The notes beneath the pieces were generated by a model. That model worked only from the letters and a program-made list of their open reading frames with translations, searched no databases and was not told the DNA's origin. Source: an uncultured Erysipelotrichaceae bacterium (GTDB taxonomy: Bacteria > Bacillota_I > Bacilli_A > RF39 > UBA660). From it: DNA of 64,000 nucleotides. Positions within the stretch are counted from its first letter, which is position 1; the number at the start of each line of letters is the position of its first letter. The translations under genes and the position numbers were made by a program. Positions 13,788 through 62,755 of the stretch are shown piece by piece. The stretch is taken from positions 208,137 to 272,136 of the forward strand of contig CADBGE010000001.1 in assembly GCA_902794075.1 (NCBI GenBank). The letters are read 5' to 3'.

Positions 13788-14303
13788 TTATTTGTCATAT
13801 TCACATGAATCATATTTGAAAACTATATCTGTGTCATTATATGAATTACTTTCATATGCATTAAAGATTTTGTCTAATGTTTCATCGATATTATCTTCTT
13901 CCTCAATCATTAGTTCAAACTTTGAAAACATCATTTTAAATCTTAGTTTTGTCAATCTAAAAGTAACAATTTTTGATTCATCAGGTGCATCTTTTCCAAG
14001 ATTATCGTCATATATTATATCAACAATGTCTTTCTTATAATCAAGTCTTTGAAAACTATCATATTCAAAATAAGCATCATTAATATATTTTACATTATTT
14101 CTAAAATACTTCTTAGCAATGTCTTGATTACTTGGCATCTGTTCTAATAATAGATCATCTATATATTGATGAATGTCATCTTCTTGAAAAGTCTCAGGAC
14201 AGTTAATAAGAATTTCATCTTTATTGCAGTTATATGTAACTTCAAGATTATTTATTGATTTCTGTTCAAATGCTTCTTTTAAATATGTAACTAAGTTTTT
14301 CAT
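13788..14303 (-). CDS. Hypothetical protein with CTS-like N-terminus (MKNLVTYLKE)
   Basis: ATG-start ORF of 171 aa. N-terminal decapeptide matches the MK.L..Y(I/L).E family signature. Confidence 0.6.
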   Translation of the reverse strand: MKNLVTYLKEAFEQKSINNLEVTYNCNKDEILINCPETFQEDDIHQYIDDLLLEQMPSNQDIAKKYFRNNVKYINDAYFEYDSFQRLDYKKDIVDIIYDDNLGKDAPDESKIVTFRLTKLRFKMMFSKFELMIEEEDNIDETLDKIFNAYESNSYNDTDIVFKYDSCEYDK

Positions 14304-14615
14304 TTAGATTTCTGTAATTCTTTTTCTCTCAAGTTCCTTTTGAACTGAAGCCCTAAGCCCATTGCTTTTGTATGTGTTATTCCAAAAATTATTTGAATCT
14401 TCTAATGAATACCAAAATTCCAATGAATCTGGTTCTGATGTATTTGTTGCTCGAGGCTTAAAAAGATATGCATAATCAATATCCTTTAATGTCTTAAGAG
14501 TATCTAATGCCTCTGATCTTGACTTTACTAATTTTCTATCAATACTTCCGTTTTTTGTTCTATATTCAAGATCATACATATTTATACTTTCTAAAAATTG
14601 TTTTAATGTTTTCAT
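14304..14615 (-). CDS. Hypothetical protein with CTS-like N-terminus (MKTLKQFLES)
   Basis: 103 aa. 4-nt ATGA overlap with the upstream sigma-like gene indicates translational coupling. Confidence 0.6.
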   Translation of the reverse strand: MKTLKQFLESINMYDLEYRTKNGSIDRKLVKSRSEALDTLKTLKDIDYAYLFKPRATNTSEPDSLEFWYSLEDSNNFWNNTYKSNGLRASVQKELERKRITEI

Positions 14616-15790
14616 TCGTCGTCTGAATTATTATTTTTAATGATATCGTTTGTGTTTAGACCGTCCTCAATAAGATCATCATCATGTTCATATTCATGTA
14701 AACATTCCTTCATAAGTTCATAAATCTCTTTCATTTTTGCCATGACAGTCTTATCGTTCTTAATAAAATTGTTTACTGTGTTACAGTAATATGTAACGAG
14801 TGATGGCTGACATCCAATCTTTTCAGCAATTTCTTTATTCTTTAGTTTCTCACGTCCATTAAGACCCATGAATGAATACCAAGCTTCAATGACCTTCTTA
14901 TCAAATTCTTTCTCAAGAATACGATATACATCAGCCCACAACTTGTCAAGATCTTGTTGGTCAAGTGTGCGTTCACCATCGTCTGTTCCTCCTACAAAAT
15001 CAAATAATGACTTCTTGCCACCATCGTCATCTTTACCAACCTTTTTATCGCCACTAATGGTGTTGTTTTTAGTAATAGATCCTTTCTCTTTCTTTTCTTT
15101 ACTGAGAACAGAAATTGGAATACGAACAAGACGTGAAGCATTATTAACTTCAGCAACAATTGCGAAACGTATCATATATGCAGCAAATTGTCCAAATGTA
15201 TATGTCTTTACAGCTTTCTCATCTTCTATATCTTTGTATGCTGATTTCTTTCCGTATGTATTCATTGCGTTAACAAATCCCTCTAATGCAGCGGACTTAA
15301 GCTGTTTGTCATCCAAGTTAACCTTGCCTTCCCATTGATGAATAATCTTGTATATTAGTTTCATATACTTTTGAACTAACGCATTACGTCCTTCTTCACT
15401 CTTAAGGTCAAGAATGATGCTATCGGGTGCTTCCTTACCTGAAATGATTGCATTAAACTGTTCCTTAGTCTGTAGTGTTGGAATCTCAAGAAGTCTGTTG
15501 TTCTTTTCAAGCTTAGACAGTGCTGCATAAAGATCCTTTAATTCTCCAGAGGATGGACGAGGATGAGAATAGAATGATACTAGACAATTGTCATTAGATC
15601 CCTTTCCAAGAGTTTCAACATAAGTTTTGTTGTTCTTAATCATATAATTAATTATGGTCATAGCCTCTTGAGAAAGAAAGTTCTTAGCAATTTCTACATA
15701 TTTCTTCAAATCTTCTACATCAATAAAATTAATTCCATTGTCCTGTACATCAAGTGTTCTACCTTCCAATAATTGAGTAAATTTCTTCAT
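14612..15790 (-). CDS. Sigma-70 family RNA polymerase sigma factor (phage-encoded)
   Basis: Region 2 signature FGQFAAYMIRFAIVAEVNNASRLVRIP (compare F.TYA.WWIRQAI.R.I..Q.R.IRIP). C-terminal region-4-like HTH at EKLKNKEIAEKIGCQPSLVTYYCNTV. Confidence 0.7.
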   Translation of the reverse strand: MKKFTQLLEGRTLDVQDNGINFIDVEDLKKYVEIAKNFLSQEAMTIINYMIKNNKTYVETLGKGSNDNCLVSFYSHPRPSSGELKDLYAALSKLEKNNRLLEIPTLQTKEQFNAIISGKEAPDSIILDLKSEEGRNALVQKYMKLIYKIIHQWEGKVNLDDKQLKSAALEGFVNAMNTYGKKSAYKDIEDEKAVKTYTFGQFAAYMIRFAIVAEVNNASRLVRIPISVLSKEKKEKGSITKNNTISGDKKVGKDDDGGKKSLFDFVGGTDDGERTLDQQDLDKLWADVYRILEKEFDKKVIEAWYSFMGLNGREKLKNKEIAEKIGCQPSLVTYYCNTVNNFIKNDKTVMAKMKEIYELMKECLHEYEHDDDLIEDGLNTNDIIKNNNSDDE

Positions 15791-15895
15791 ATGTTATATA
15801 TATAGTTATTTATTATATTATCTTATTATTTACAATTTGACAGTACAAAAATATAACATTTTTTCGACATATTAAAATTTTTTTATGATTTTTTC

Positions 15896-17109: not shown

Positions 17110-18033
17110 ATGATAAGTTTAATTGATTACATAAAAAGCATTACGACTTCAAAACATAGAAATGTATTCAATGAATCGTATGAAGAATTTTATAATAAAA
17201 CTAATAAGTCATATGATGAATACATTGAATCGTTTTATAAAAACAAAGAAATGTGTAGACGATTTAACTTTGATGTTGATGATGAATCATATGAAAAACA
17301 AATACAAGATTTATATGAAACATTATTAAGTTCTAGTTCAAATGATTATTTTATAGATTGTTTTAAACAACGATTTAGAAATGATTTTGTTCGAGCAGAC
17401 ATACCATCGTATATAGATAATCAAAAAGTAGACGGATGCGTTAAACTAAAAGTCAAAAAATCATTTGATGAAGAATCTGAACGGTTCAAAAGTTTTCTAA
17501 ATGTACATAATTATTATATAGTTAAGATTGATGAAGAAATAGCATATAAAATTATATATGTTGAACGATACATACAAGACAATTACACAAATGAAGTATA
17601 TGAAACATATAATGGAATATTATATCATGTGACAACAAAAAACAAAAAAGATAAGATATTGAAATTTGGATTACATCCTAAAGGAAATGAATATGAAAGG
17701 TCACATGTAAATTTAATTGGATTGGGAAATAAAGATGTGAAACATCCAAAAAGATTATATTTCTTTGCAAACAAAAAACATAGTGAAACACTATATAGAA
17801 CATTGCATAATAATATTGATGAAATATGTGTTTTAAGAATAGATTTAAAGAAATATAAAAACACAATAAGATTTTTTAGAGATGATTCATTTTCTGACTT
17901 AAGATCAATATTCACGTATGAGCCAATACCTCCATATTGCATAAGTGAAGTTAACAACACGAATGTTCTTATGAATAATGACATATTCATATCATTCGTA
18001 AATAAAATAAAGAAACTTTTTAAGATTTATTAA
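17110..18033 (+). CDS. ADP-ribosyltransferase-fold (Tpt1/KptA- or PARP-like) domain protein with CTS-like N-terminus (MISLIDYIKS)
   Basis: Corrected start at ATG 17110, downstream of the terminator. Motif YNGILYHVTTKNKKDKILKFGLHPKG...RSHVNL resembles the Tpt1 LYHGT...I...GL.P..R.HVHL pattern. Paralogous to 58033-58773 and 61847-62755. Confidence 0.55.
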   Translation: MISLIDYIKSITTSKHRNVFNESYEEFYNKTNKSYDEYIESFYKNKEMCRRFNFDVDDESYEKQIQDLYETLLSSSSNDYFIDCFKQRFRNDFVRADIPSYIDNQKVDGCVKLKVKKSFDEESERFKSFLNVHNYYIVKIDEEIAYKIIYVERYIQDNYTNEVYETYNGILYHVTTKNKKDKILKFGLHPKGNEYERSHVNLIGLGNKDVKHPKRLYFFANKKHSETLYRTLHNNIDEICVLRIDLKKYKNTIRFFRDDSFSDLRSIFTYEPIPPYCISEVNNTNVLMNNDIFISFVNKIKKLFKIY

Positions 18034-22840: not shown

Positions 22841-23785
22841 TTATTTTTTCTCAAGTTCTTTAATTCTTTCCTCTAATTCAGTAATCTTATTTATTAATTT
22901 ACTAACAACTAATGACAAAGAAGAATTATAATCAACAGATTTAACATTATGTATTTCTCCAGAATTATCGGAAGATGTAGTCACAAGTTCAGGATGCATT
23001 TTTTCTAAGTCTTGAGCAACAAATCCATACATATGAGAACCATTCATATTGAACTCATACATATTTATTTCGTCAATGTTCGCAATCTTTTCAATATCCG
23101 TTTTTAATCTTTCATCAGAATTCTCCATGAATTTTGGAGCAACAATCTGACCAGAAGTGCTGTTGGCTTCTAAAGATATTTTATTATTTGGACCAATTCT
23201 AACATAAGTATATGATACACTACTGCTGACATTAAAGTGTAATCCATCAACATTAGTATAATCATTTATAGATATACCTGATCTTGACAAAATTGCTTCA
23301 GGGTATGTTTGTATAAATCCTTGTGAACCACCAATTGTAATAGATCCTTTGTTCCATCCTATGGAAGAATTAGTTATATGTAATCCATCTATATTTCCTG
23401 AATATTGACTCCAATGAATTTCTTGGTCAGTATCGACTTTATTTGAACCGCTCTTTGAAACATAATTAGATATTTGAGAAGAAGTTGATTCAACAGCATC
23501 AAGGCGAGAATTAAGAACAGCCAATCCAATTGCTGTTGTCTGTTCATTCTCAATCATCTTTGTGTATATAACTTTATTCTGAACAGGATTAGTTGAAGTA
23601 TTGTTTAGTGTATCGTCAACTTTAACATGTCCATATGCTGTAGTTGATGCATGAATATTATGATCATTCCATGCTTTTGTAAGAGATTTAGTTGTGCCAT
23701 TATCATTAATTTGAACTAATCCTGCATAAGTAATTGGAAGCAATATGTCACTACCATTTTGTAATTTAATTGGATATGTTGCCAT
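22841..23785 (-). CDS. Tail fibre with C-terminal intramolecular chaperone (peptidase S74-like) domain
   Basis: N-terminal IKL.NG..LLPIT anchor motif shared with the other fibres. C-terminus ...SDERLKTDIEKI....MYGFVAQDLEKMHPELV... matches the endosialidase-type self-cleaving chaperone domain. Confidence 0.75.
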   Translation of the reverse strand: MATYPIKLQNGSDILLPITYAGLVQINDNGTTKSLTKAWNDHNIHASTTAYGHVKVDDTLNNTSTNPVQNKVIYTKMIENEQTTAIGLAVLNSRLDAVESTSSQISNYVSKSGSNKVDTDQEIHWSQYSGNIDGLHITNSSIGWNKGSITIGGSQGFIQTYPEAILSRSGISINDYTNVDGLHFNVSSSVSYTYVRIGPNNKISLEANSTSGQIVAPKFMENSDERLKTDIEKIANIDEINMYEFNMNGSHMYGFVAQDLEKMHPELVTTSSDNSGEIHNVKSVDYNSSLSLVVSKLINKITELEERIKELEKK

Positions 23786-23837
23786 GAATAAATATTGTGA
23801 TTGTTTGTAAAAAACTAATTTTATTTTATATATAAAA

Positions 23838-23931
23838 ATATTTTCCTAAAATGATTTCGTGTATCTATAATAGACGATATATTTTCCTAAAATGATTTCG
23901 TGTATCTATAATAGACGATATATTCTTAAAA
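23838..23931. repeat. 41-bp direct tandem repeat (2.3 copies) in an intergenic region
   Basis: ATATTTTCCTAAAATGATTTCGTGTATCTATAATAGACGAT at 23838-23878 and 23879-23919, plus a partial third copy. Lies upstream of the fibre gene start at 23785 (minus). Confidence 0.85.
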
Positions 23932-23932
23932 A

Positions 23933-24763
23933 TTATCCTCCAGTAAATTCTACTGAAGTTGAACTAAAGTACATCTTATTTGTTACTTTATCTATAAACC
24001 CGTATCTTTGTAATGCTAAATTGCCAGGCATTAAACGAATTGGAACAAGATAATGAGCAATATCATTATTTTCTGGAAGGCCATTCCAAATCTTTACATA
24101 ATATATTCTACCTTTAAAGGGGACGTCTAAGTCAGACTTTGTATTTGATGATGTAGCAGTTGTATTTCCTCCACCTCGAGCAAACAAAAATAAATCCTTT
24201 GCAATAGTTGCATTATAATATGCTGAACCATTACCTGTTTTTTTTATTATTCCATTATGACGAATATCCCATGCTCCGTTTGTGTCATTAATGTTCCAAT
24301 TAAATACATAATTATTATTTATATTAATTGGATTCATTATACTGACTGCTCCTGACTTATTTGTTCCAGATGTACCACCTGTTGCATAATCATTATTTAA
24401 CGCCATATACCCATATAATCTATTTGGATTTTTTGCATCATTATAGCTAAACTTTAATAAACATAATGTATGATACCCAGTAGATCTATATGCTTGTCCA
24501 AAAACACTTTCTTGTGCGCGCTCTAAATCATTAAATTTATATTTTATTTCTAAACTTTGTTTACCTATGTTTAAAGGAATTTTAGTATTTATGTATGAAT
24601 TACCGTCACCTTCTATGTAGTTCACATATTCAAACATATTATCTATATGTAAATCATTATCATCTAAACATGTACTAGCAATTGGAAATAATTCATTACG
24701 TGTCATAATGAATTTATTTTTAAGATAATTTGCATGAAAATTAAATAATCTAAGATTTTTCAT
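23933..24763 (-). CDS. Receptor-binding protein with LamG/concanavalin-like lectin domain
   Basis: GRIYYVKIWNGLPENNDIAHYL... matches the LamG-type jelly-roll signature (vRiYNraLs..Ei). Confidence 0.6.
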   Translation of the reverse strand: MKNLRLFNFHANYLKNKFIMTRNELFPIASTCLDDNDLHIDNMFEYVNYIEGDGNSYINTKIPLNIGKQSLEIKYKFNDLERAQESVFGQAYRSTGYHTLCLLKFSYNDAKNPNRLYGYMALNNDYATGGTSGTNKSGAVSIMNPININNNYVFNWNINDTNGAWDIRHNGIIKKTGNGSAYYNATIAKDLFLFARGGGNTTATSSNTKSDLDVPFKGRIYYVKIWNGLPENNDIAHYLVPIRLMPGNLALQRYGFIDKVTNKMYFSSTSVEFTGG

Positions 24764-24804
24764 TTATTCTTATACATTTTTTAAAATTTTTTAAAAGTTA
24801 TAAT

Positions 24805-25692
24805 TTAGCCACCAATGAATATAGGTTCAGCTGGTTCTACAGATATAGCAGTTGGATCATTTTGTATTGTAGTACTATCTATTTGTGAAATATGTTCATT
24901 TATTTCAACACCGGATAAATTTTCATGAGTATGCCATGTATGATCTATAGTATCGTATAATCCGTATTGTCCGTCTGAATTATGTTTGCACGGAACTAAA
25001 TTATGAACAAGAACTCTATCATGATACATTTGAAGATGATGCAAGTATATCCATGATATATAAATAGCTGAATTTGATCCGAAATATCCATTAGTATTTT
25101 CAAAAAAACCTAATTTATTCCTGCTATACTGTTTAACAAATACATCATCTACATATAAATTAGCTGAATACTCTGTGGCACTTGAAGTTGATCTTGTAGT
25201 ATCAAATTTTAATACTTGTGGTTTTAATGGATCAGTTGATGCTAAAACAGTATTTATACCTATATTACCTTCAATTGAAAATAGTGTTTTTGAACCTGAT
25301 TGTGTTATACCGAAAACCCCACTAGTTTGTGCGTTACCAAAAAATTGGGATGCTGGACTGCTTCCACCTGTATTTCCAATTTTTGATTCTTGCCATGAAC
25401 ATTTTACAACCCATCTAATATGTGTTAATCCAGTATTTGATACCGCAAAACGACCTAATCCAGCCAATGAAGCAGTGTTATAAACATATCTGCATTTCGT
25501 GTATTCATCAGGAATTATGTCTGCTCCAAAGAATCCATTATTTTCTATATGGATATATTTACCATCATATGAATATGTATTAGTAGATGTATATGTAGAT
25601 ACTACAGGACATACATAACTCTGACGAATATTCAGATTTTCATTGGTATTTGCATTTGATAATGATGAATAATTAGATAATAAATATTTCAT
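24805..25692 (-). CDS. Putative tail fibre / receptor-binding protein
   Basis: Beta-rich and Gly/Ser/Thr/Asn-rich. Located within the fibre cassette. Confidence 0.6.
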   Translation of the reverse strand: MKYLLSNYSSLSNANTNENLNIRQSYVCPVVSTYTSTNTYSYDGKYIHIENNGFFGADIIPDEYTKCRYVYNTASLAGLGRFAVSNTGLTHIRWVVKCSWQESKIGNTGGSSPASQFFGNAQTSGVFGITQSGSKTLFSIEGNIGINTVLASTDPLKPQVLKFDTTRSTSSATEYSANLYVDDVFVKQYSRNKLGFFENTNGYFGSNSAIYISWIYLHHLQMYHDRVLVHNLVPCKHNSDGQYGLYDTIDHTWHTHENLSGVEINEHISQIDSTTIQNDPTAISVEPAEPIFIGG

Positions 25693-25714
25693 GTTTAGCT
25701 TATATATAAAATGT

Positions 25715-26362
25715 TTACTGTTGAGTTATTGTGATAGTTGGCTGTGTGATGTTTGAAAGTACCGTTAGTGTATTCGTAGGTGAAAATGTATGATTATGAT
25801 CTGGTATAGTAACAGTTTTATCTGGAATAGTAACTGAACATGATTGACCACCAACCGCAATTGTTTGTTCAGCTAATGTATATGTATATGATAATGTTGT
25901 TTCACTAGTTCCACCTGCTAAACCTAATGATGTATTATCAATGGTAACACTTATAGCATTATATTTTGTATATTTTAAATTAGAAACTGTTCCATTAATA
26001 TTTAGTGCAGGAATTGTTATGCTTTTTGTTCCTGTGGTTCCAGAAGCAGTGAATGATGCTAAAGTACCAGATAATGATTTACTTCCTATCGTTCCACCAG
26101 TTGTCTTATCGTATTTTGCTGTTCCACCACTAGCGGTTGCTCTATATGTTGGTATGGATGTTATATATCCAGCATCCTCTAATACTTCAACTCTATCATT
26201 AAGATCATTATATCCTGCAGCAGTTACTTCTTCATTCTCAAGAATTACATCCTTAACAGATTTAACCTGTCCATCAACAGACATTTGAACAACAGATGCA
26301 TCAGTTACTGGAATAAGAGTTACATTGTTGTTATCAGTTAGTTTTATGATTTTTGCGCTCAT
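25715..26362 (-). CDS. Tail fibre paralog (N-terminal anchor MSAKIIKLTDNNNVTLIPVTDASVVQ)
   Basis: Shares the IKL(T/K)...L.PvT.a.VvQ N-terminal motif with 22841, 27349, 30878 and 33903. Confidence 0.65.
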   Translation of the reverse strand: MSAKIIKLTDNNNVTLIPVTDASVVQMSVDGQVKSVKDVILENEEVTAAGYNDLNDRVEVLEDAGYITSIPTYRATASGGTAKYDKTTGGTIGSKSLSGTLASFTASGTTGTKSITIPALNINGTVSNLKYTKYNAISVTIDNTSLGLAGGTSETTLSYTYTLAEQTIAVGGQSCSVTIPDKTVTIPDHNHTFSPTNTLTVLSNITQPTITITQQ

Positions 26363-26468
26363 TTATACATATAAAAATTTTTGATATATTTAAAAATAAA
26401 ATATTCATAAAAAAATCCCTATCGTAAGATAAGGATATTATATATTTCATTATAATTGTGTTAATGAC

Positions 26469-27242: not shown

Positions 27243-27260
27243 AAATTACGTTTCGTTAAA

Positions 27261-27274
27261 TATAATTAAAAATA
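27261..27274 (-). promoter_or_regulatory. Recurrent promoter-like motif (minus-strand reading ...TTTTTAATTATA...)
   Basis: One of at least 6 near-identical ATTTTTAATTATAT(A) motifs 25-50 nt upstream of minus-strand ATGs (also near 29178, 33817, 39341, 45529, 50595). Confidence 0.4.
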
Positions 27275-27288
27275 TTAATCAATTATAT

Positions 27289-27326
27289 AAAAAATCCTCC
27301 AAACGCGCGCGTTTGGAGGATTTTTG
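27289..27326. terminator. Bidirectional rho-independent terminator
   Basis: AAAAAATCCTCCAAACGCGC|GCGTTTGGAGGATTTTT, a perfect GC-rich palindrome with A and T tracts. Downstream of fibre gene 27349-29148. Confidence 0.8.
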
Positions 27327-27348
27327 TAAATTATATTTAATATAATTT

Positions 27349-47950: not shown

Positions 47951-47960
47951 ATTTTATAAT

Positions 47961-48570: not shown

Positions 48571-48603
48571 ATAGTGAGTGGGCTCAATTGCCACACCCAC
48601 TAT
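48571..48603 (-). terminator. Terminator downstream of the Hsp70 gene
   Basis: ATAGTGAGTGGGC-TCAATTG-CCACACCCACTAT imperfect hairpin. On the minus strand it is followed by TTTTTTGATTTTTATTTT. Confidence 0.55.
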
Positions 48604-48631
48604 TTCATTAGTCATAATCTTATATAGTGTA

Positions 48632-50548
48632 TCATTTGACTTCCTCAGCTTGTACATCTTCAGCATCCTTGAATGGATTGTCTCCACCCATCTGAGCAAA
48701 TGGATTGCTCTGCGCTTGCTGAGACTGTTCACCTTGCTTTGGAGCAGATTCCTGATAGATTCTAGTGATGATTGGTTGATAGTAATCCTCAAGTGCCTTA
48801 CGAGCAGGCTCAATCTTCTCGAGATCCTTTGTCTGCAGTTGTTCATCAAATTCTTTCAGAAGTTCATTAATCTTCTCTTTCTCCTCATCAGTGAACTTGC
48901 TGCCCATGTGCTCATCCTTCAATGATGCTTCAACGGCATACTTATATCCTTCTGCAGTATTCAGCTTGTCAATCTCTTCTTTCTTTTTCTTGTCCTCTTC
49001 AGCATGATCTGCAGCATCTTTCTTGATACGGTCAATTTCTTCTTGAGATAGCGAATTGCCCTTCTCAATAGTGATGTGTTGTTCCTTTTGAGTACCAAGA
49101 TCCTTTGCAGTGACTGTCAAGATACCGTTAGCATCCATCTCAAATGTAACCTCAATCTGAGGAACGCCACGAGGAGCAGGAGCAATGCCGTCCAAGTTGA
49201 ATTGACCAATGATCTTATTGTCACGACTCATAGGACGCTCACCCTGAAGAACAATGATACTTACTGCAGGTTGGTTATCAACAGCAGTTGTGAATACTTG
49301 AGACTTACGAACAGGAATAGTTGTGTTTGCATCAATCAATTTACCCATCTGACTTCCGTTCACCTCGATACCGAGTGAGATAGGTGTTACATCAAGAAGA
49401 AGAACATCAGTGTCAGAAGTGTTGCCCACCAAGATGTTTGCCTGGATTGCAGCACCTTCAGCTACAGCAAGGTCAAGGTCAGCTTTATGAATTAATTCAA
49501 CACCGAACTTATCGGTAAGACGCTTCTGAAGAAGAGGAATACGGCAAGAACCACCAACCAAGATAATACCATCAAGAGTACAGTTTGCCTTTTCACGAGC
49601 ATCCTCAGCACACTTGATTACTTTATCTACATACTTGCTTGCGATATTCTCAAATGCTGCTTTGTTAAGTTTCTTAACAAAGTGTTTAGGCATACCGTCA
49701 ATTGCTGTAATATATGGTAGGTTAATTTCAGTCTCAGTAACTCCTGACAGTTCAATCTTTGCTTTCTCTGCAGCCTCAACTACACGTTGCATAGCCATAG
49801 GATCCTTGCTTAAGTCAAAATTCTCCTGTTTCTTGAACTCATCAACGATCCATTGTGCGACTGCATTGTCAATATCTGCACCACCAAGCCATGTATCGCC
49901 ATAACTTGAAAGTACTTCAATCAGTTGAGAATCTTTGTCATAATCAAGAACAGTTACATCTGTAGTGGAACCACCAAAATCCACAACAGCATACTTACCT
50001 GATTTCTCCAGTTTACTTGCAAGACATGCCGCAGTAGGCTCATTGATGATACGCAATACATTTAGACCAGCAAGTTCACCAGCCTCTTTAGTAGCATTAC
50101 GCTGTGAATCATCAAACAATGCAGGAACTGTAATGACAGCATCTTCGACGGAATGGCCAAGATATTCCTCAGCCTGCTTCTTTAGTTCTTGAAGAATCCA
50201 TGAACTGATTTCTTGTGGAGAATACTCCTTATCGTTAATCTTTACATAGGGATAGCCATTATGATTCACAACATCATAATGCAAGTGCTTGATAGCATCC
50301 TGAGCTTCTTCCCAGTTGCGTCCAATTAGTCTCTTAATTAAATTGATTGTTTGTTTAGGTTTCATCAACATTTGACGCTTTGCTGATGAGCCTACACGAC
50401 GCTCACCATTGTCATCGATGTTGACTACTGATGGAAATGTTTTAGAACCTTCTGCGGTAAGTACAATAGCCGGACGGCCGTTTTCCATCACACATACTTC
50501 CGACATTGTTGACCCAAGGTCAACACCAATTGCTTTCTTGTTGCTCAT
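48632..50548 (-). CDS. dnaK: Hsp70-family chaperone (divergent DnaK homolog)
   Basis: 638 aa. N-terminal phosphate-1 motif AIGVDLGSTMSEV (compare IGIDLGTTNS). DFGGSTTDVTVL (compare DLGGGTFD). ILVGGSCRIPLLQ (compare LVGGQTRMP). A substrate-binding domain and a charged C-terminal tail follow. Confidence 0.85.
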   Translation of the reverse strand: MSNKKAIGVDLGSTMSEVCVMENGRPAIVLTAEGSKTFPSVVNIDDNGERRVGSSAKRQMLMKPKQTINLIKRLIGRNWEEAQDAIKHLHYDVVNHNGYPYVKINDKEYSPQEISSWILQELKKQAEEYLGHSVEDAVITVPALFDDSQRNATKEAGELAGLNVLRIINEPTAACLASKLEKSGKYAVVDFGGSTTDVTVLDYDKDSQLIEVLSSYGDTWLGGADIDNAVAQWIVDEFKKQENFDLSKDPMAMQRVVEAAEKAKIELSGVTETEINLPYITAIDGMPKHFVKKLNKAAFENIASKYVDKVIKCAEDAREKANCTLDGIILVGGSCRIPLLQKRLTDKFGVELIHKADLDLAVAEGAAIQANILVGNTSDTDVLLLDVTPISLGIEVNGSQMGKLIDANTTIPVRKSQVFTTAVDNQPAVSIIVLQGERPMSRDNKIIGQFNLDGIAPAPRGVPQIEVTFEMDANGILTVTAKDLGTQKEQHITIEKGNSLSQEEIDRIKKDAADHAEEDKKKKEEIDKLNTAEGYKYAVEASLKDEHMGSKFTDEEKEKINELLKEFDEQLQTKDLEKIEPARKALEDYYQPIITRIYQESAPKQGEQSQQAQSNPFAQMGGDNPFKDAEDVQAEEVK

Positions 50549-50576
50549 AATAAAATATGTTAATAAATTTGTAGCT

Positions 50577-50594
50577 CAGGTTGTTGCCAACCTG
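50577..50594 (-). other. Hairpin in the 5' leader of the Hsp70 gene
   Basis: CAGGTTG-TTGC-CAACCTG (7-bp stem). Lies between the promoter-like motif (50595-50610) and the ATG at 50548. No adjacent T-tract on either strand. Confidence 0.4.
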
Positions 50595-50610
50595 TATATA
50601 ATTAAAAATA
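50595..50610 (-). promoter_or_regulatory. Promoter-like ATTTTTAATTATATA motif upstream of Hsp70
   Basis: Motif family as above, about 47 nt upstream of the ATG. Confidence 0.4.
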
Positions 50611-50629
50611 TAATTTTAGTCAAAAAAAT

Positions 50630-51136
50630 TTAATGATGTATCTCATTAAAAATTTCTTTTAATGAATCAAATATTTCTTTGTCTATTATAAAATAATTTA
50701 CTGCTGTTCCAGGATATTCTAATGAGGACTTGTTAAATAATGATATGTTTTTTAATTGCTGTGCTTCTACATAACGAATTTGAACATCATTAATGTATCT
50801 AATTCGAATGTCATCATATAAATTTACATATTTGTCATGTCTTTGTAAACGATGAACTAAAAATAAATTTTGTATAACTTCATTAAAGCCACATACATAT
50901 TCACCTTCATTGGCAATGACATTCATCTTATTGAATGATATCTCTTTACCAGACCTTTTTATATAATTAATTATGTCTTTAAACGCATTTTTATCTTTTG
51001 TGTTAATTGTATATAAATGAGATGACCATGAATAGCTTCTTAAAGTATCTTCAAAACTTTCTGATTTGAAATTTTTGTTGATGACAAGTTTTTCATTAAA
51101 AAATGACTCATGCAAATGCTGTTTTAATGATTTCAT
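50630..51136 (-). CDS. Hypothetical protein with CTS-like N-terminus (MKSLKQHLHE)
   Basis: The ORF-track start at 51172 is a GTG that overlaps the upstream stop. The first ATG (51136) gives the family N-terminus MKSLKQHLHESFFNEKLVINKNF, so it was preferred. Confidence 0.55.
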   Translation of the reverse strand: MKSLKQHLHESFFNEKLVINKNFKSESFEDTLRSYSWSSHLYTINTKDKNAFKDIINYIKRSGKEISFNKMNVIANEGEYVCGFNEVIQNLFLVHRLQRHDKYVNLYDDIRIRYINDVQIRYVEAQQLKNISLFNKSSLEYPGTAVNYFIIDKEIFDSLKEIFNEIHH

Positions 51137-51168
51137 TACATATTGAACATATTTTTCAATTAAAAATA

Positions 51169-51597
51169 TCACTTCATTTGCCTTATAATTTCAATAACTT
51201 TACTACCATCTGCTGCAGGATATTTATCTTTCACATATCCCATGATGTGCTTCATGTTTTGTGGCTTAGGTTCATAACCACTATCAATGATTGCTTGCTT
51301 CAATTCATCTTGACTAGGAACCTTAGGCAAGAAACTTTGAAGAATATTCAATCGTTCAGTTAGTTCTGTGACATCCCTATTTGCTTTAATGAACATATCT
51401 CTCTCATCCTGCCATGACTTTTCCATCTTCATAAGAATTGAGATCTCTTTTGCGTCATTGAAATCACTTTTCTTGAATCCCTTGCTTGTCTTATATTCAA
51501 GAAATTTTGCCTTAATCATTTTCAGTACATAAAGACGATTTGCATCTTTTGACTTCATCGCGTCTGCAATTTCCTTATTAATGTTCTCTCTAAGCAT
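51169..51597 (-). CDS. GatB/YqeY-domain protein
   Basis: 142 aa. MLRENINKEIADAMKSKDANRLYVLKMIKAKFLEY... resembles the YqeY/GatB C-terminal domain family. Confidence 0.55.
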   Translation of the reverse strand: MLRENINKEIADAMKSKDANRLYVLKMIKAKFLEYKTSKGFKKSDFNDAKEISILMKMEKSWQDERDMFIKANRDVTELTERLNILQSFLPKVPSQDELKQAIIDSGYEPKPQNMKHIMGYVKDKYPAADGSKVIEIIRQMK

Positions 51598-51623
51598 AAT
51601 TTTAATTATTTTTTTTTAATTTA

Positions 51624-51809
51624 TTAATTACAACGTACCGCTGTATCACATAATGTTGCCTTTTCAATATGAAGCAAGTTCTTGTAATAACTATTTTCAA
51701 TATATTGTTCACATGCTTCTTTATCGGTTGTCCAATGAGTTTCTGCACTCTTGTAATTATAATTATCAATGCATACAACACGATAAATTTCTTGAATTGT
51801 AAATGTCAT
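51624..51809 (-). CDS. Hypothetical small Cys-containing protein (61 aa)
   Basis: ATG ORF directly downstream of rtcB. Confidence 0.4.
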   Translation of the reverse strand: MTFTIQEIYRVVCIDNYNYKSAETHWTTDKEACEQYIENSYYKNLLHIEKATLCDTAVRCN

Positions 51810-51813
51810 AATT

Positions 51814-53034
51814 TTAATTATTTGCTTTAAAATTGTAAAGTGGTTTAATTTGCTTGATAATATCTACTGTATCACCAATTGCATTGATAATTGATTCCAT
51901 AGGCTTATATGCCATAGGTGCTTCATCAATAGTATCAGTGTTGACTGAAGTAGTATAAATACCCTTCATAGAATTTTTGAAATCTTCCATGTTCAATTCA
52001 GCTTTTGCCTTAGAACGACTCATTATACGACCTGCTCCATGAGGTGCAGAATAATTCCAATCCGCATTACCCCTACCAACACAAATCAATGAACCATCTC
52101 TCATGTTCATGGTGATAATCAAATTTTCACCATCCGCCGCAGAAACAGCTCCTTTACGAAGCATCATATATTCATCAATATAATTATGAGTAGTAAATAT
52201 ATGTTCATCGAATTTCCAATTCATATATTTACCAATTACCTGACAAATAGTTTCATGATTTATATATGCGAATTGTGAACACTTCCACATATCATTAATG
52301 TAACCTGAAAAATCATCGCCATCGAGATTCTTATCAAGATATGCCATTTCATTAGAAACTGCAGGGCGTTTAATTTTCTTAAGTTCTGACTGAATCTCCT
52401 TTTCACGTCCTTCTGCTTTCAAACGCTTAATAAGTTCATCAACTTCACCCTTCTTTGATGTTCTATTCTGAATTGCCTTAGTCTGCCAATACTTGCACAC
52501 TTCAACACCTAAATGACGAGAACCACAATGAATAAGAAGATATACTTCATTTGTCTCCTCGCACCATTCTACAGAAATAAAATGATTACCTCCGCCAAGT
52601 GTTCCTAAAGAATATAGTGTATATCTCTTATTAATTGGACATTTAATCTCGTCAAGAAAATTTACACATTGTTTTTGCATACTCGCAGGAACATCATCAA
52701 GTACATTACGAATATTGGTTCCTGAAGGAATATGCTCATGAATCACATTATCTAATTTTTCTTTAACAGTATCAAACCACTGCTTTCCATTTACCTTCTT
52801 AGGTAACTTAATGCGATGTGCTGATACGGTACATCCGATGTCGACGCCAACGAAATTAGGAGTAATCTTATCAGTAATCTGCATGGTTGTACCAACAGTA
52901 CAGCCTTTACCAGCATGGCAATCAGGCATCATACGAATAATGTTGTTCTTATATGCATCTGACTTAGCCATTGCATAAATCTGGTTCAGAGCCTCGGGCT
53001 CAACAATCTCTGCATATATCTTTAAAGTTTCCAT
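51814..53034 (-). CDS. rtcB: RtcB-family RNA 3'-phosphate/2',3'-cyclic phosphate ligase
   Basis: Signature motifs CHAGKGCTVG, GGGNHFISVEW and HGAGR (APHGAGRIMS) are present. 406 aa. Confidence 0.9.
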   Translation of the reverse strand: METLKIYAEIVEPEALNQIYAMAKSDAYKNNIIRMMPDCHAGKGCTVGTTMQITDKITPNFVGVDIGCTVSAHRIKLPKKVNGKQWFDTVKEKLDNVIHEHIPSGTNIRNVLDDVPASMQKQCVNFLDEIKCPINKRYTLYSLGTLGGGNHFISVEWCEETNEVYLLIHCGSRHLGVEVCKYWQTKAIQNRTSKKGEVDELIKRLKAEGREKEIQSELKKIKRPAVSNEMAYLDKNLDGDDFSGYINDMWKCSQFAYINHETICQVIGKYMNWKFDEHIFTTHNYIDEYMMLRKGAVSAADGENLIITMNMRDGSLICVGRGNADWNYSAPHGAGRIMSRSKAKAELNMEDFKNSMKGIYTTSVNTDTIDEAPMAYKPMESIINAIGDTVDIIKQIKPLYNFKANN

Positions 53035-53925: not shown

Positions 53926-54276
53926 TTATGATTCTAATTTTTCCAATGCGTCAGGCCCTTCATATTCATAATCACCCCATAAATCATTTTCATCAACCCA
54001 ATTCAAAAAATTAATTAATGGAATAATGTCATCTTTTATATTATTTCTATTTATGACTGGCCAATTATTTGTATCATCAAGAACATCATATAGATCGTTC
54101 ATTTGTTGTTTTTCTTCATCAGATAATACATTCCAATATTCAGAATACTTTTTTATTTCAGAATCTTCACCAATATTTCCTGTTAATAGACCGACCAAGG
54201 ATGCTATAGCGTCTCTTTCACTTTCTGTTAGTTTAAAATATCTTGTTTCATTTATATAAGTTATTAATGATTTCAT
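53926..54276 (-). CDS. Hypothetical acidic protein with CTS-like N-terminus (MKSLITYINE)
   Basis: 116 aa. Last gene of a 3-gene overlapping MKSL array. Confidence 0.6.
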   Translation of the reverse strand: MKSLITYINETRYFKLTESERDAIASLVGLLTGNIGEDSEIKKYSEYWNVLSDEEKQQMNDLYDVLDDTNNWPVINRNNIKDDIIPLINFLNWVDENDLWGDYEYEGPDALEKLES

Positions 54277-55073
54277 TCTACTCCTTTTGGTTTATATTTA
54301 TTTACTATATTGCAATTACTGAACATTTTGTCCGTTTTTGCTGTATCTTTAATTTTCCATTTACTTAAGTTACAATTAAAATTTTCGCACCATCCAAACA
54401 TCCAAGAAAAATTCTCTCCTTTACTAACATTCCATTTACTTAAATCATAATTAAATTTTGAACAACCATAAAACATTGAATCAAAGTTTGTTGAATTACT
54501 TACATCCCATTTACTTAAATCTGAATTGAAATTTGGGCAGTTAAAGAACATTTTTTTAAAAGTCTGGCCGTTTCTAACATTCCATTTTCTTAAATCGCCA
54601 TTAAATTTTATACAGTCTTCAAACATCCAATAAAAAAATTCTCCATTACTTACATCCCATTCGCTTAAGTTTTGATTAAATTTTTTACATTCATAAAACA
54701 TTGCTCCAAAATTCTCTCCATTGCGAACATCCCAATTGCTTAAGTCGCAATTGAATTTTTTACACCCATAAAACATATAATAAAAATCCTTACCATTACT
54801 TACATCCCATTTACTAATATCAAAATCTTTATTTCCGGTATTTTTATCTTGTAGAAACAATTTGCTAAAATCAGTTATTTCGGATACGTCTATATCATTT
54901 AAGTCATATATGCCTTTATTATAATGTTCACGTATTGCTAATTCTAATTCATTTCTGTCTTTTGGGTGATAATTATAAATGTCACTATAATTTTTATTAA
55001 TGACAAGTTTTTCATCTACTTGTGATGGAATAATGATAAGTTTTTCAGATATGTAATTTATTAATGACTTCAT
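54273..55073 (-). CDS. DUF285 / BspA-like repeat protein with CTS-like N-terminus (MKSLINYISE)
   Basis: About 7 tandem 23-aa repeats SKWDVSNG..F..MF..C.KFN.DL. The N-terminus has the family motif plus EKLVINKNY. Confidence 0.7.
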   Translation of the reverse strand: MKSLINYISEKLIIIPSQVDEKLVINKNYSDIYNYHPKDRNELELAIREHYNKGIYDLNDIDVSEITDFSKLFLQDKNTGNKDFDISKWDVSNGKDFYYMFYGCKKFNCDLSNWDVRNGENFGAMFYECKKFNQNLSEWDVSNGEFFYWMFEDCIKFNGDLRKWNVRNGQTFKKMFFNCPNFNSDLSKWDVSNSTNFDSMFYGCSKFNYDLSKWNVSKGENFSWMFGWCENFNCNLSKWKIKDTAKTDKMFSNCNIVNKYKPKGVE

Positions 55074-55453
55074 TTCATAAAATTAAATTTTTTTCTATTA
55101 AAAACTACAATACCAATATTATCATTAAGTATTGTATCATAATTATATATCTCACGATCATCATCAACATTAACTATAATTCCGTTATCTGAACTTTCAT
55201 ATTTATATATATTTGATGTATCAACAATATTATAATATGAAGAATCTGTTTCAATAATTTTACAGATTACATATTCATTGTCATTACCAAATTCTTTATT
55301 TTCTAATTTATTAAATATTCTTTTAATGCTATTTTCATTTTCAATAGCAATTCCTAAAACAATATTATCTGGTATTCTATTACCACTTTCTGAACATTTA
55401 AGTCTGAATGGTGCTGGGCCGCGTTCATTAATGTATTCTACTAAACTTTTCAT
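55070..55453 (-). CDS. Hypothetical protein with CTS-like N-terminus (MKSLVEYINE)
   Basis: The ORF-track start at 55495 adds 14 AT-rich codons. The internal ATG at 55453 gives a near-consensus family N-terminus, so it was preferred. Confidence 0.55.
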   Translation of the reverse strand: MKSLVEYINERGPAPFRLKCSESGNRIPDNIVLGIAIENENSIKRIFNKLENKEFGNDNEYVICKIIETDSSYYNIVDTSNIYKYESSDNGIIVNVDDDREIYNYDTILNDNIGIVVFNRKKFNFMK

Positions 55454-55550
55454 TTTTATGTTGATAAAATTTATATATATAAAAATAAAATCCATAAAGT
55501 ATATGCGTATATATCACAAATATTTTTAAATATATACTTCATTAAATATC

Positions 55551-58032: not shown

Positions 58033-58773
58033 TTAAAATGATTTTACAAATTTAATAAGTTCAGCAGGAATATTGTGATATGTGAATATTGCTTCCTCTT
58101 CTTTCATTGCAGTATCTTTATATATTGGAATATTGTGAACATGGTTAAAATCAATTTTTAATACTGAAATATTATCATTGCAATTTAATATCTTATCACA
58201 AAAATCTTTTACTTTATCGGTTAATTTTCCATTGTTAAATATTCTTTCATTTGTTTTATATAAGAAAATACGTTCAGGAAAATTACGATATTTTGCCTTT
58301 TTACATCTTAGCCCATTCTTTAATATACTCTCCACATTTTTTGTATATGTAAAATGATAACAAATATTATGATATTCATTTAAATCAACAGTTTTAGAGT
58401 ATGTTGGTTCAATGAATAATAACTTTGTTTTAATATCAACACCAGACAAATAATACCCATAAAATTCTAAAATTCTTTTGAATTTTTTGTCGTTTGATAA
58501 ATATATGTAATTTGATTTATTTACCTTTATTGTGAATGAGCCATTATCATAATCATCAAATTCTATTTCATATTCATTATTGAATTCTTGAAATAACTTT
58601 GATTTTAGTTTTTCAACATCATGTGAATTTAAAGCTTCAAGAATATAATCAATGTTTGCGTCAATATTATTGGGATCTAAATCTTCATTAAAAAAATCAC
58701 ATAATGATTCATAGTATTGTCTCCACCAAAATTTCTTTGAACTTTCATTAATAAATTCTTTTAATGTTTTCAT
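58033..58773 (-). CDS. ADP-ribosyltransferase-fold (Tpt1/PARP-like) protein with CTS-like N-terminus (MKTLKEFINE)
   Basis: Paralog of 61847-62755 (ILEFYGYYLSG...HNICYHFTYTKNVESILKNGLRCKKAKYRNFPERIFLY versus IIEFYGYYISG...HNICYHFTDNKSAESILKNGLRCKSGSYREYPERIYLY). H-x-T...GL...R pattern. Confidence 0.55.
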   Translation of the reverse strand: MKTLKEFINESSKKFWWRQYYESLCDFFNEDLDPNNIDANIDYILEALNSHDVEKLKSKLFQEFNNEYEIEFDDYDNGSFTIKVNKSNYIYLSNDKKFKRILEFYGYYLSGVDIKTKLLFIEPTYSKTVDLNEYHNICYHFTYTKNVESILKNGLRCKKAKYRNFPERIFLYKTNERIFNNGKLTDKVKDFCDKILNCNDNISVLKIDFNHVHNIPIYKDTAMKEEEAIFTYHNIPAELIKFVKSF

Positions 58774-60592: not shown

Positions 60593-61567
60593 TTATACCT
60601 TATATTTTTCTAATCGTTTAACATCAAACAATATGTCATTTGAATTAATATATAAAGTTGTGTTCTTTCGTCTTTTTAATAATAAATCACAAACAATTTT
60701 TGGTAATAACTGATTGAATTTTTTATAAAACTTATTCCATGCATTTGTAAATTCTTTTCTTAATTTACTAAATGTTACGTTCTTGTTCCATTCTTTATTA
60801 TATGCATCAACAAAATGTTTCTTATCATCTTCGGACATTGAATTCATTTTCACAATAAATGTTCCACAATCAAAATATATTTTCCACACCCCAGATTTTT
60901 GTAATTTTTCCCTAAATTTTGTATAATCAAAATGCGTGATGTTATATTGGTCAAGTAATTTATCGCATGTTTCTTCAAGCTGTCCAAAATATGCTCGTTG
61001 TTCCTTGTCATTCAAGAAATATTTACATTGGCCGAGTATTCTATATTCATATATATTAGATTTAACATTTCTAAATGCCTTAATATATTCATCTGAAAAA
61101 TAATCAAATATTGATGGTTCTCCATTATTGATTCTATTTATATCCTCATAGGCATGCATAAGCTCATGAAGAAGAGCACTTTTTATTTCCCATTCATTTG
61201 GAATTCCATTATTTATGTATAAATCAAATTCAACAACATTATTCTTTATTCCTTTGTAACTGCCATAAACATATTTGTCAGTTATAACGTGTAAATTTAT
61301 TTTTTTGAAAAATATGTTAAATTTGCTACAATCAATTAATATTTCATAATCTTTATTTTCTTTATATCTTTCGTTTTCAAATATTCCATAATATGATATA
61401 AAATCAATAAGATCTTTATAGTTTGAAAAATGTCCAAGTTCTTCATTTATCATCCCATAAAAATCATTGTAGTTCGCAAATAATTCAATGTTTATATGTT
61501 CTTTAAGAATGTTGAATAATTTATCCTCAAAATTCTTTGATATTATATGTTCTTTAAAATTTTTCAT
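60593..61567 (-). CDS. Putative zinc metallopeptidase with HExxH motif (SprT/Wss1- or ImmA-like)
   Basis: ALLHELMHAY at about residue 135 of 324 aa. N-terminus MKNFKEHIIS loosely resembles the family leader. Confidence 0.45.
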   Translation of the reverse strand: MKNFKEHIISKNFEDKLFNILKEHINIELFANYNDFYGMINEELGHFSNYKDLIDFISYYGIFENERYKENKDYEILIDCSKFNIFFKKINLHVITDKYVYGSYKGIKNNVVEFDLYINNGIPNEWEIKSALLHELMHAYEDINRINNGEPSIFDYFSDEYIKAFRNVKSNIYEYRILGQCKYFLNDKEQRAYFGQLEETCDKLLDQYNITHFDYTKFREKLQKSGVWKIYFDCGTFIVKMNSMSEDDKKHFVDAYNKEWNKNVTFSKLRKEFTNAWNKFYKKFNQLLPKIVCDLLLKRRKNTTLYINSNDILFDVKRLEKYKV

Positions 61568-61761
61568 TAATTTTTAATATTTATTTCATCCTTAATTACT
61601 TTTAATTTATATATATTATTAATGTTTGAATGTCCTTCGCACATAAACTTTTCTGTCTCATATTGTATGCTGTCTATTTCATCAGAATCAGCACCAATAT
61701 ACGTCTGTGTGACATCAGAATAATATGGATCTATTGCTGTGTATTTGACTATTCTTTTCAT
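61567..61761 (-). CDS. Hypothetical small protein (64 aa)
   Basis: ATG ORF. 1-nt overlap with the downstream gene. Confidence 0.45.
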   Translation of the reverse strand: MKRIVKYTAIDPYYSDVTQTYIGADSDEIDSIQYETEKFMCEGHSNINNIYKLKVIKDEINIKN

Positions 61762-61846
61762 TATTTATTTTAAACTTTTCATCAGTTCAGTAATTCGTTC
61801 CTTTGTGTTTGGATGAATGAATTTAAATGTCTGAAAAATGCTTTAA

Positions 61847-62755
61847 TCATCTTATATAAATTTTTGCTATGCATTCCGCAGGAATATTAGTATATGTGAA
61901 TACACTCTTGTTATCATCTATCATCATTGTGTCTCTATATACAGAAACACCAATATGATTCAAATCAATTTTCAATACAGCTAACCCGTATTTGTGTATC
62001 ATATTGTGATCGCAGATTATGTCAACCATATTTTTGATGTCTGTTCTTAAGTGCATGTTCTTGTCAGTAACATATAAATCACAATATAGATATATACGCT
62101 CAGGATATTCCCTATAACTTCCTGACTTACATCTCAACCCATTCTTAAGTATACTTTCAGCTGATTTATTGTCCGTAAAATGATAGCATATATTGTGTGA
62201 TTTAGTCAATATGTCGTCAGCATTTTTTGAATATTTTGGCTCAATTGTGAGTATTATTGCTGCTTGTTTATCAACAGTAAGTATATAATCTTTTAAATTA
62301 TGTATCTTATCTAATTTGAATATTGATATGTCTCCTAAACCATTTTTACCATATATTCCTGAGATGTAATATCCATAAAACTCAATGATTGATAAAAATT
62401 TCTTGCCTTTTATTATGTTGGCTAATTCATCATCATACTTTAGTATAATTTCAAATGAATCAATTGTTTCATCATCGTTGTTTTTCTCAATACTTATGAG
62501 TGAACTTCCTAAAAATTCATGAAGCTTCTTACTGATTTTAGAAAAATCATGAGAATTTAATGTCTCAAGTATAAAATCAAATCCTGATGAATTATTGAAT
62601 GTTTTGTAATAATTCGCAACATCATCAATCAGATTATCAGGACATGTATCATCAATTGATTCTCCATAAAAATTGATTATGTCATTTCTGATTAAGCTTC
62701 CTTTCTGTATTGGAACATATTTGTTAGTTCTTATATATTCTGTAAACCTTTTCAT
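61847..62755 (-). CDS. ADP-ribosyltransferase-fold (Tpt1/PARP-like) protein, paralog of 58033-58773
   Basis: See 58033-58773. N-terminus MKRFTEYIRT is a leader variant. 302 aa. Confidence 0.55.
   Translation of the reverse strand: MKRFTEYIRTNKYVPIQKGSLIRNDIINFYGESIDDTCPDNLIDDVANYYKTFNNSSGFDFILETLNSHDFSKISKKLHEFLGSSLISIEKNNDDETIDSFEIILKYDDELANIIKGKKFLSIIEFYGYYISGIYGKNGLGDISIFKLDKIHNLKDYILTVDKQAAIILTIEPKYSKNADDILTKSHNICYHFTDNKSAESILKNGLRCKSGSYREYPERIYLYCDLYVTDKNMHLRTDIKNMVDIICDHNMIHKYGLAVLKIDLNHIGVSVYRDTMMIDDNKSVFTYTNIPAECIAKIYIR

Follow-up and report, generated by a model that had tools for sequence, protein, structure and literature searches.

The window analysed here is a 64,000-nucleotide (nt) stretch of contig CADBGE010000001.1 (assembly GCA_902794075.1, positions 208,137 to 272,136), which is filed under an uncultured Erysipelotrichaceae bacterium. 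It has a G+C content (GC) of approximately 29% and 71 non-overlapping open reading frames (ORFs), with almost no Shine–Dalgarno sequences. At least eight to thirteen of its proteins, mostly unrelated to one another, carry one ten-residue N-terminal tag, referred to here as the leader: M-K-(S/T)-(L/F)-x-x-(Y/F/H)-(I/L)-x-E. We interpret this decapeptide as a capsid-targeting propeptide of a T4-like head-assembly system and, from the sequence comparisons below, place the probability of this reading at about 0.78. The leader ORFs of the window, together with one sigma-like gene with a leader-like start, are listed below by coordinates and strand, with lengths in amino acids (aa); in the text, an ORF is named by its lower coordinate.

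13788-14303, minus strand: leader ORF, 171 aa, MKNLVTYLKE; no Pfam or PHROG match
14304-14615, minus strand: divergent leader ORF, 103 aa, MKTLKQFLES, Glu at position 9
14612-15790, minus strand: sigma-70-like protein, 392 aa, weak leader-like start MKKFTQLLEG; matches phrog_351, RNA polymerase sigma factor (E = 1 × 10−15)
17110-18033, plus strand: divergent leader ORF, 307 aa from the ATG at 17110, MISLIDYIKS, no Glu10; Tpt1/KptA-like ADP-ribosyltransferase (ART) paralogue
46713-47258, minus strand: leader ORF, 181 aa, MKSLSQHIEE, then an ERLIINK/EKLIINK motif in two copies
47255-47950, minus strand: leader ORF, 231 aa, MKSLVKYINE, then EKLIVNKDF
50630-51136, minus strand: leader ORF, 168 aa from the ATG at 51136, MKSLKQHLHE, then NEKLVINKNF
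53926-54276, minus strand: leader ORF, 116 aa, MKSLITYINE
54273-55073, minus strand: leader ORF, 266 aa, MKSLINYISE with EKLIII/EKLVINK motifs; DUF285 repeat cargo
55070-55453, minus strand: leader ORF, 127 aa from the ATG at 55453, MKSLVEYINE; highest matrix score of the window
58033-58773, minus strand: leader ORF, 246 aa, MKTLKEFINE; two-lobed cargo with a predicted Tpt1/KptA-like ART fold
60593-61567, minus strand: divergent leader ORF, 324 aa, MKNFKEHIIS, no Glu10; HELMH (HExxH) in the cargo
61847-62755, minus strand: divergent leader ORF, 302 aa, MKRFTEYIRT, no Glu10; Tpt1/KptA-like paralogue of 58033

A strict form of the leader, MK[STN]L..[YFH][IL].E, opens 8 of the 71 ORFs, all on the minus strand (starts at 14303, 47258, 47950, 51136, 54276, 55073, 55453 and 58773). 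Given the amino acid composition of the window, approximately 1 × 10−4 such starts are expected by chance, and the binomial probability of at least 8 in 71 is 2 × 10−37. This rules out chance as the source of the leader and establishes its enrichment in the window; a preliminary description of this DNA had proposed such a check over all ORFs of the full genome. With a leave-one-out position-specific scoring matrix (PSSM), the strict leaders score 12.2–22.1, more than 4.5 standard deviations above the background formed by the other 498 Met positions (mean −8.6, standard deviation 4.6, maximum 12.6). The highest-scoring of these non-training positions (12.6) is the start of 14304, one of five weaker leader starts (14615, 15790, 61567, 62755 and, on the plus strand, 17110).

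Position 4 is Leu in all eight strict leaders, position 7 is Tyr, Phe or His, and residues 8–10 read (I/L)-x-E without exception. The preliminary description had counted at least 11 ORFs with a common leader. Eight of these carry the strict form; the others are weaker, as 60593, 61847 and 17110 have no Glu10 and 14304 has its Glu at position 9. The three that lack Glu10 may be targeted and left uncleaved, or their leaders may have decayed. All of the ORFs and start codons described earlier exist, including the internal ATGs at 51136 and 55453, and every leader instance begins at an ATG 0–20 codons past an in-frame stop. Gene callers also assign 168 aa to homologues of 50630 on other contigs, and the in-frame ATG at 55495, upstream of 55453, is probably not the true start. 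A Sec or lipoprotein signal peptide is ruled out, as the residues after the leader are polar or charged and form no hydrophobic stretch. The left flank of the window (locus L124) has two further strong leaders, MKSLVNYINE (8104-8706) and MKKLVEYITE (6684-7334), and in the right flank (L127) 0 of 23 genes have one; at least 10–15 tagged genes lie within 84 kb.

The leader is conserved as protein, not as DNA. Mean pairwise nucleotide identity is 0.68 in the leader, compared with 0.39 in the 30 nt before it and 0.29 in the 30 nt after it, and codon positions 1 and 2 of the leader are better kept than the third (0.73 versus 0.59). Both TCA and AGT occur as Ser3 codons, and Leu, Tyr, Ile and Glu are likewise encoded in more than one way. 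Because conservation is limited to 30 coding bases in which the codons vary, selection acts on the peptide, as had been argued earlier from the synonymous differences among the leaders. Orthologues that are 30–47% identical retain the leader peptide, and among the leader matches in IMG/VR described below, codon choice tracks contig GC and the peptide stays constant.

Beyond the leader, the proteins had been described as unrelated, which holds for most of them. In BLAST comparisons of the proteins without their first 10 residues, only 58033, 61847 and 17110 match one another (61847 and 58033 are 40% identical once the leader is removed); paralogy is ruled out as the source of the leader. The other exception is a second, short motif, E-K-L-[IV]-[IV]-N-K-[DN]-[FY], which is shared by four proteins at a variable distance past the leader (47181-47231, 47804-47824, 51074-51094 and 54993-55046). 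About one-third of leaders are extended by a further EKLx(I/L)N(K/S) motif, and in relatives the EKLxINK motif is often fused straight onto the leader (MKxLxxYIxEKLKI...).

Pfam and PHROG searches returned nothing for most cargo proteins. The three cargo types named in the preliminary description are all present: DUF285 repeats in 54273 (Pfam E = 3 × 10−52), an ADP-ribosyltransferase fold in 58033 (by structure model and Foldseek, below) and an HExxH sequence, HELMH, in 60593, a protein with no family match and no PDB match by sequence. Homologues of several cargo proteins keep leader-like starts. Those of 13788, at 30–40% identity, begin MKTLKEYINE (L010) and MKSLIMYINE (L198); those of 17110 begin MISLLDYIDD or MMNLIDYIKN; and those of 60593 begin MKSLQEYIID or MRNPKEFIIQ. 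Many orthologues and paralogues of 54273 in relatives retain both the leader and an EKLxLN motif. The 47255 gene shows heavy strain-level diversity (195 clusters at approximately 80% identity). At residues 17–41 or so, between the leader and the EKLIVNK motif, its protein has a tandem 12-residue duplication (AESKALHQNVNI, twice) that most homologues, which start MISLVEKLKVNKDF, do not have (194 aa versus 231 aa). The sigma-70-like gene, which was outside the list of the preliminary description, heads the operon 15790 > 14615 > 14303. Its product is a tentative member of the leader family; a sigma factor packaged in a capsid would be notable if true, and the leader match of this protein is weak.

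Correspondence to the capsid-targeting sequence of T4

Internal proteins IPI, IPII and IPIII of phage T4 begin with the capsid-targeting sequence (CTS) MKTYQEFIAE, which is cut by the prohead protease gp21. T4 genetics has established that residues 4 and 7 of the CTS control targeting and that residues 8 and 10 control cleavage; Asp10 prevents cleavage and leaves targeting unaffected (PMC9026906). The conserved positions of the window leader, 4, 7, 8 and 10, are the same as these functional positions. The likeness to the CTS that was remarked on earlier is also borne out by a PSSM built from only the eight window leaders. When run over the T4 genome (1580 Met positions), it places gp61.1 at rank 1, ipIII and ipII at ranks 3–4 and ipI at rank 16.

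The top-ranking T4 protein is a 54-aa hypothetical protein, encoded by gene 61.1 (AF158101, start at 19130, minus strand; L167). It begins with MKTFKEFIKE, outscores ipII and ipIII and, on the basis of this sequence, may be an unrecognised CTS protein.

In both T4 and the window, a 10-residue N-terminal tag is found on otherwise unrelated proteins, with M-K-(S/T) at positions 1–3, hydrophobic or aromatic residues at positions 4 and 7 and (I/L)-x-E at positions 8–10. The two differ in consensus (MK(S/T)LxxYINE here versus MKTYQEFIAE), in the number of tagged genes (at least 10–15 in 84 kb here versus three internal proteins in the whole of T4) and in host (here probably Bacteroides/Phocaeicola versus Enterobacteria). 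The predicted cargo here is larger and partly enzymatic, and about a third of the leaders have the EKLxINK extension. The huge phages phiKZ, 201phi2-1 and SPN3US likewise have head-internal proteins that are cut after Glu by a T4-related protease, as is predicted here; however, their propeptides are mostly at least 100 residues long, share no decapeptide and are cut at (S/A/G)-x-E (PMC5694885). The window leader, which is short (10 aa), shared and ends in the T4-type (I/L)-x-E, falls outside this phiKZ-type propeptide class.

A further parallel with T4 concerns the cargo. The AlphaFold2 model of the 58033 protein (predicted local distance difference test 83, predicted template modelling score 0.72) was compared with the PDB using Foldseek. 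The top 20 matches were all KptA/Tpt1 (E values down to 4 × 10−6, probability of 1.0), followed by DarT. By this model, the cargo is a two-lobed, Tpt1/KptA-like fold of the NAD-dependent ADP-ribosyltransferase superfamily. At the sequence level, the 58033 protein scored 17.2 bits with Pfam PTS_2-RNA, under the cut-off of 26, and its PDB profile match had an E value of 0.65; the ART paralogues had no significant match in the PDB by sequence. Conservation is complete at H140 and almost complete at Y139, T142 and R168. T4 packages an ADP-ribosyltransferase, Alt, in its capsid, where it is processed by gp21, and the window enzymes would by analogy be ART-superfamily enzymes destined for the capsid and for early action on the host. 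Because the ART-fold cargo parallels packaged Alt, it adds support to the CTS reading. The window enzymes differ from Alt in that they are predicted to have the two-lobed fold of Tpt1/KptA (RNA 2′-phosphotransferase) and DarT and not that of the Alt/ModA/ModB type, and tblastn searches with T4 Alt, ModA and ModB gave no match in the window.

Leader and head genes in related phages

As the preliminary description had suggested, we searched for the leader in other phage genomes, using a degenerate DNA pattern for MK[ST][LF]xxYINE against IMG/VR. The pattern matched at least 120 loci, on contigs ranging from 20% to 64% GC, whereas a permuted pattern of identical composition gave 4 matches, which rules out an effect of codon composition. 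Approximately nine in ten of the listed matches are at true ORF starts, and the proteins are unrelated. Prokaryote genomes (596 Gb) gave 80 leader matches, mostly on contigs of metagenome-assembled genomes; one of them, on a 410-kb ‘Firmicutes’ contig, belongs to a phage relative. T4 core genes are found at 45 of the 120 leader loci. The order of the genes says more than this count. At one of these loci (L037), gp20 is followed by gp21, with seven or eight leader ORFs (MKTFKQFIVE, MKTFKEFIAE, MKSFSTYINE and similar) on its two sides, and then by gp22. At two others (L069 and L123), the order is gp20, MSIKSFKEFVAE ORF, MKSFKQYINE ORF, gp21, gp22, gp23. A marine prohead-core leader protein had no match in GenBank.

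At another leader locus (L111), the gene for a 566-aa protein of the Peptidase_S77 family (44.9 bits, cut-off of 27) precedes that for a capsid protein of the Gp23 family (111 bits). With this capsid protein as the query, we retrieved 32 IMG/VR loci of this huge-phage clade, here called the S77/Gp23 clade; nine of the contigs also hold homologues of window genes. The 32 capsid-anchored loci contain 30 leader ORFs, all of which lie on the same strand upstream of the pair formed by the protease and the major capsid protein (MCP), with none downstream. The clade proteases keep the T4 gp21 motifs GELxHP and SSRGxG, which contain the catalytic His and Ser, respectively, and the clade capsid proteins have IHEIHE approximately 40 residues from the N terminus. 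In all 99 distinct clade leader proteins, position 4 is Leu, Ile or Phe. When clade ORFs were chosen on residues 1–7 alone, [ILVM]-x-E was present at positions 8–10 in 96 of 120, compared with 61 of 685 other ORFs, and most of the exceptions have Glu at position 11.

Proteins of the window are found on gut-metagenome contigs of 400,026 and 399,786 bp. The UvsW-type helicase of the window is 59–60% identical to that of the clade, and at least 12 genes are common to the window and the MCP-carrying contigs. In tblastn searches, this helicase matched 2518 phage records, with T4-like groups leading; among GenBank phages there was no near match to the window, the best helicase relative at the protein level being 29% identical. 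The window also encodes a gp32-like single-stranded DNA-binding protein, a tail-fibre array, DnaK, DnaJ and RtcB, and an IF-1A gene lies in the flank. A 142-kb relative has the sigma-like gene (49%), the 13788 orthologue (38%, leader kept) and the helicase (60%), after which come the tail tube, sheath, capsid protein, S77 protease and a giant ORF. On the evidence of these shared genes, the window genome belongs to the S77/Gp23 huge-phage clade. Synteny with the relatives predicted a capsid gene near 26–28 kb; that region holds an array of tail-fibre paralogues instead, and the window genome is thus rearranged compared with its relatives. The S77-type protease would, by analogy with these relatives, be encoded elsewhere in the genome to which the window belongs.

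From the size of approximately 400 kb, the GC, the IF-1A gene and the gene content, the phage is probably a Jug-like phage of Bacteroides/Phocaeicola. Jug phages are similarly large (360–402 kb), have approximately 30% GC and an IF-1A gene, come from gut metagenomes and carry T4-like marker genes, including those for the MCP and prohead protease (PMC12880540); the proposed identity with the window genome is based solely on size, GC and gene content. N-terminal leaders and injected proteins are unmentioned in the Jug phage paper (PMC12880540).

One record among the relatives, ONIZ01000001.1 (‘uncultured Firmicutes bacterium isolate RUG343’, 410,106 bp, rumen), is the same as IMGVR_UViG_2799112330_000002. 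Its loci (L185, L214 and L231; L074, L088, L112 and L149 in IMG/VR) contain a gp23-type capsid gene in the usual protease–MCP arrangement of the clade, and it has at least seven leader ORFs, seven of them in 7 kb. This record is a huge T4-like phage genome that has been filed as a bacterium.

Proposed assembly model and alternative explanations

The proposal of the preliminary description, a T4-type capsid-targeting leader on diverse cargo, is supported by the PSSM results, the positions conserved, the specificity of the pattern, the conservation at the peptide level, the adjacency to S77 and Gp23 genes in relatives and the UvsW-like and gp32-like genes of the window. In the model that we propose, the leader proteins would be made together with the virion proteins, and the leader would bind the prohead core through residues 4 and 7, so that the tagged proteins are enclosed as the gp23-type shell forms. 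A gp21-type (Peptidase_S77) protease would then trim them after the Glu of (I/L)-x-E, and the trimmed proteins would later be ejected into the host with the DNA. The tag would have spread over many unrelated cargo genes, including those for three Tpt1/KptA-like proteins, a DUF285 protein and an HExxH protein. Packaging, cleavage after Glu10, injection and effector roles are all predicted by analogy with T4.

Several observations weigh against this interpretation. Although a gp21-like protease with conserved motifs is present in the clade relatives, clade hidden Markov models of the S77 protease and MCP found neither gene in the window or within 10 kb on either side. A capsid-profile search of 5.8 billion proteins gave 2127 matches, and none of the best 120 was on a 400-kb contig. 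The leader genes of the window lie among chaperone, RNA-repair and small genes, away from head genes, and three or four of the listed members do not have Glu10. T4-like contigs are frequent in IMG/VR to begin with, and two of the four control matches were also T4-like. The EKLxINK motif has no counterpart in T4. In relatives, the tag is also found on housekeeping-type enzymes (a P-loop kinase, a HAD phosphatase, a nucleotidyltransferase and a ligase), which are unusual capsid cargo. The motif and these enzymes may mean that the concept of cargo is wider than in T4.

An alternative that keeps the prohead as the target is that most tagged proteins are assembly or core components of the T4 gp67 and gp68 type, degraded or structural, and not injected effectors. 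The leader ORF of L069 and L123 is indeed in the gp67/gp68 position, between the portal and the protease, and the leader ORFs of relatives are often small proteins directly upstream of the protease. The cargo of the window, however, consists of folded enzymes and repeat proteins (Tpt1/KptA-like, DUF285 and HExxH), which are closer to Alt and the internal proteins than to scaffold, and its genes are dispersed and hypervariable between strains, as would be expected of genes in an arms race. We consider this alternative unlikely.

It is more doubtful still that the leader is a general N-terminal tag for expression or sorting that is unrelated to capsids, such as a translation enhancer for mRNAs without Shine–Dalgarno sequences, a degron or a docking helix. 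Most window genes have no Shine–Dalgarno sequence, the leader is built from AT-rich codons and it is borne by enzymes that are not among the packaged proteins of T4. Against this, a permuted pattern with the same codons gave 4 matches versus at least 120, and codons shift with GC under a constant peptide. The [IL]-x-E ending agrees with the rule for cleavage by gp21, and its conservation persists among ORFs selected without regard to it; moreover, leader ORFs cluster beside S77 proteases and the leader PSSM retrieves T4 internal proteins. A third alternative is a recombination linker at the DNA level, or what is left of a recent duplication, through which gene cassettes are shuffled and to which the peptide is incidental. 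This would be in keeping with the tandem arrays of leader genes and with the proposal, attributed to Repoila et al. (1994), that the CTS-coding sequence of T-even phages aids ip gene shuffling, but it is very improbable given the leader nucleotide identity of just 0.68, the poorer conservation of third positions (0.59 versus 0.73), the unconserved flanks, the use of both TCA and AGT for Ser3 and the retention of the peptide by orthologues at 30–45% identity.

If the leader is a CTS, the mechanism is not new, as unrelated proteins with a common N-terminal packaging leader are an established T-even paradigm. The injected T-even internal proteins are specific inhibitors of host restriction systems, and their cataloguing has been limited to Tequatrovirus; the known Ip types number at least 10, and Ip1–3 among them inhibit GmrSD enzymes (PMC12373910). 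What is new here is the setting, a huge and probably Bacteroides-infecting phage, together with the number of tagged genes, the enzymatic cargo and the extended motif. Judged by its sequence matches, the tag is also widespread among environmental T4-like phages, which is equally new. We found no paper describing this expanded leader-tagged set.

More tentatively, and with slightly less than even odds in our estimation, huge T4-like phages of the gut and rumen pre-load their capsids by means of the CTS with dozens of proteins, including whole enzymes (Tpt1/KptA-like ADP-ribosyltransferases, P-loop kinases, HAD phosphatases and nucleotidyltransferases) and perhaps a sigma factor. In that case, proteins that enter at injection would carry out much of the host takeover and counter-defence, and the decapeptide, extended by EKLxINK in this clade, would provide a metagenome-wide rule for the injected proteome of any T4-like phage. 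On the CTS reading itself, the 10-residue motif becomes a useful means of predicting first-strike proteins from metagenomes and from uncultured huge phages, here 400-kb phages of dominant gut bacteria. Among the candidates it singles out for a role in anti-defence or host takeover are the three Tpt1/KptA-like enzymes, and the leader might also serve to engineer cargo into phages of this kind.

Promoter-like elements and neighbouring genes

Some leader operons are preceded by a promoter-like element, one copy of which is located as follows.

47960-47969, minus strand: promoter-like TATATATAAA, upstream of the operon 47950 > 47258

Further copies lie at 15795-15804, 55470-55481 and 61606-61615, and before tail-fibre and other putative virion genes. 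Four leader operon heads (15790, 47950, 55453 and 61567) share the TATATATAA element with tail-fibre genes. The palindromic TTATATATAA is present in 10 copies, compared with 1.1 expected, and 9 of the 10 are intergenic, just upstream of genes (738, 11914, 16530, 23826, 25700, 33808, 39338, 40105 and 48513, and also 6786). A looser form, TATATA[AT]A, lies at most 50 nt upstream of 17 of the 71 genes, including tail-fibre genes and an operon of a 536-aa and a 3155-aa ORF. The late promoter of T4 is TATAAATA, which the TTATATATAA element resembles, making the latter a candidate late promoter. The elements shared with tail-fibre genes suggest that the leader operons are co-expressed with virion genes.

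The 3155-aa ORF (2418-11885, plus strand) follows the 536-aa ORF behind TTATATATAA and has no Pfam or PHROG match. In relatives, unrelated giant ORFs (1885–2623 aa) immediately precede the protease and capsid genes.

Leader ORFs are interleaved with a block of chaperone and RNA-repair genes (45577-53034, minus strand), which are the following.

45577-46650, minus strand: DnaJ
48632-50548, minus strand: HSP70/DnaK
51169-51597, minus strand: YqeY
51814-53034, minus strand: RtcB

The tail-fibre array (22841-35525, minus strand) has at least six paralogous ORFs (215–599 aa) with a common N terminus, M(A)xxxKIIKLxxGxxxLPVT, and divergent sequences afterwards. The ORF at 22841-23785 matches several PHROG tail-fibre families (E = 4 × 10−19), and the array probably forms a tail-fibre module for several receptors, with one attachment domain in common. 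In the left flank, a 413-aa ORF (L124, 5346-6587) has only a weak DNA_pol_B match and may be one piece of a polymerase gene that has been split, which would fit with Jug genes having been reported to be often interrupted by introns and inteins.

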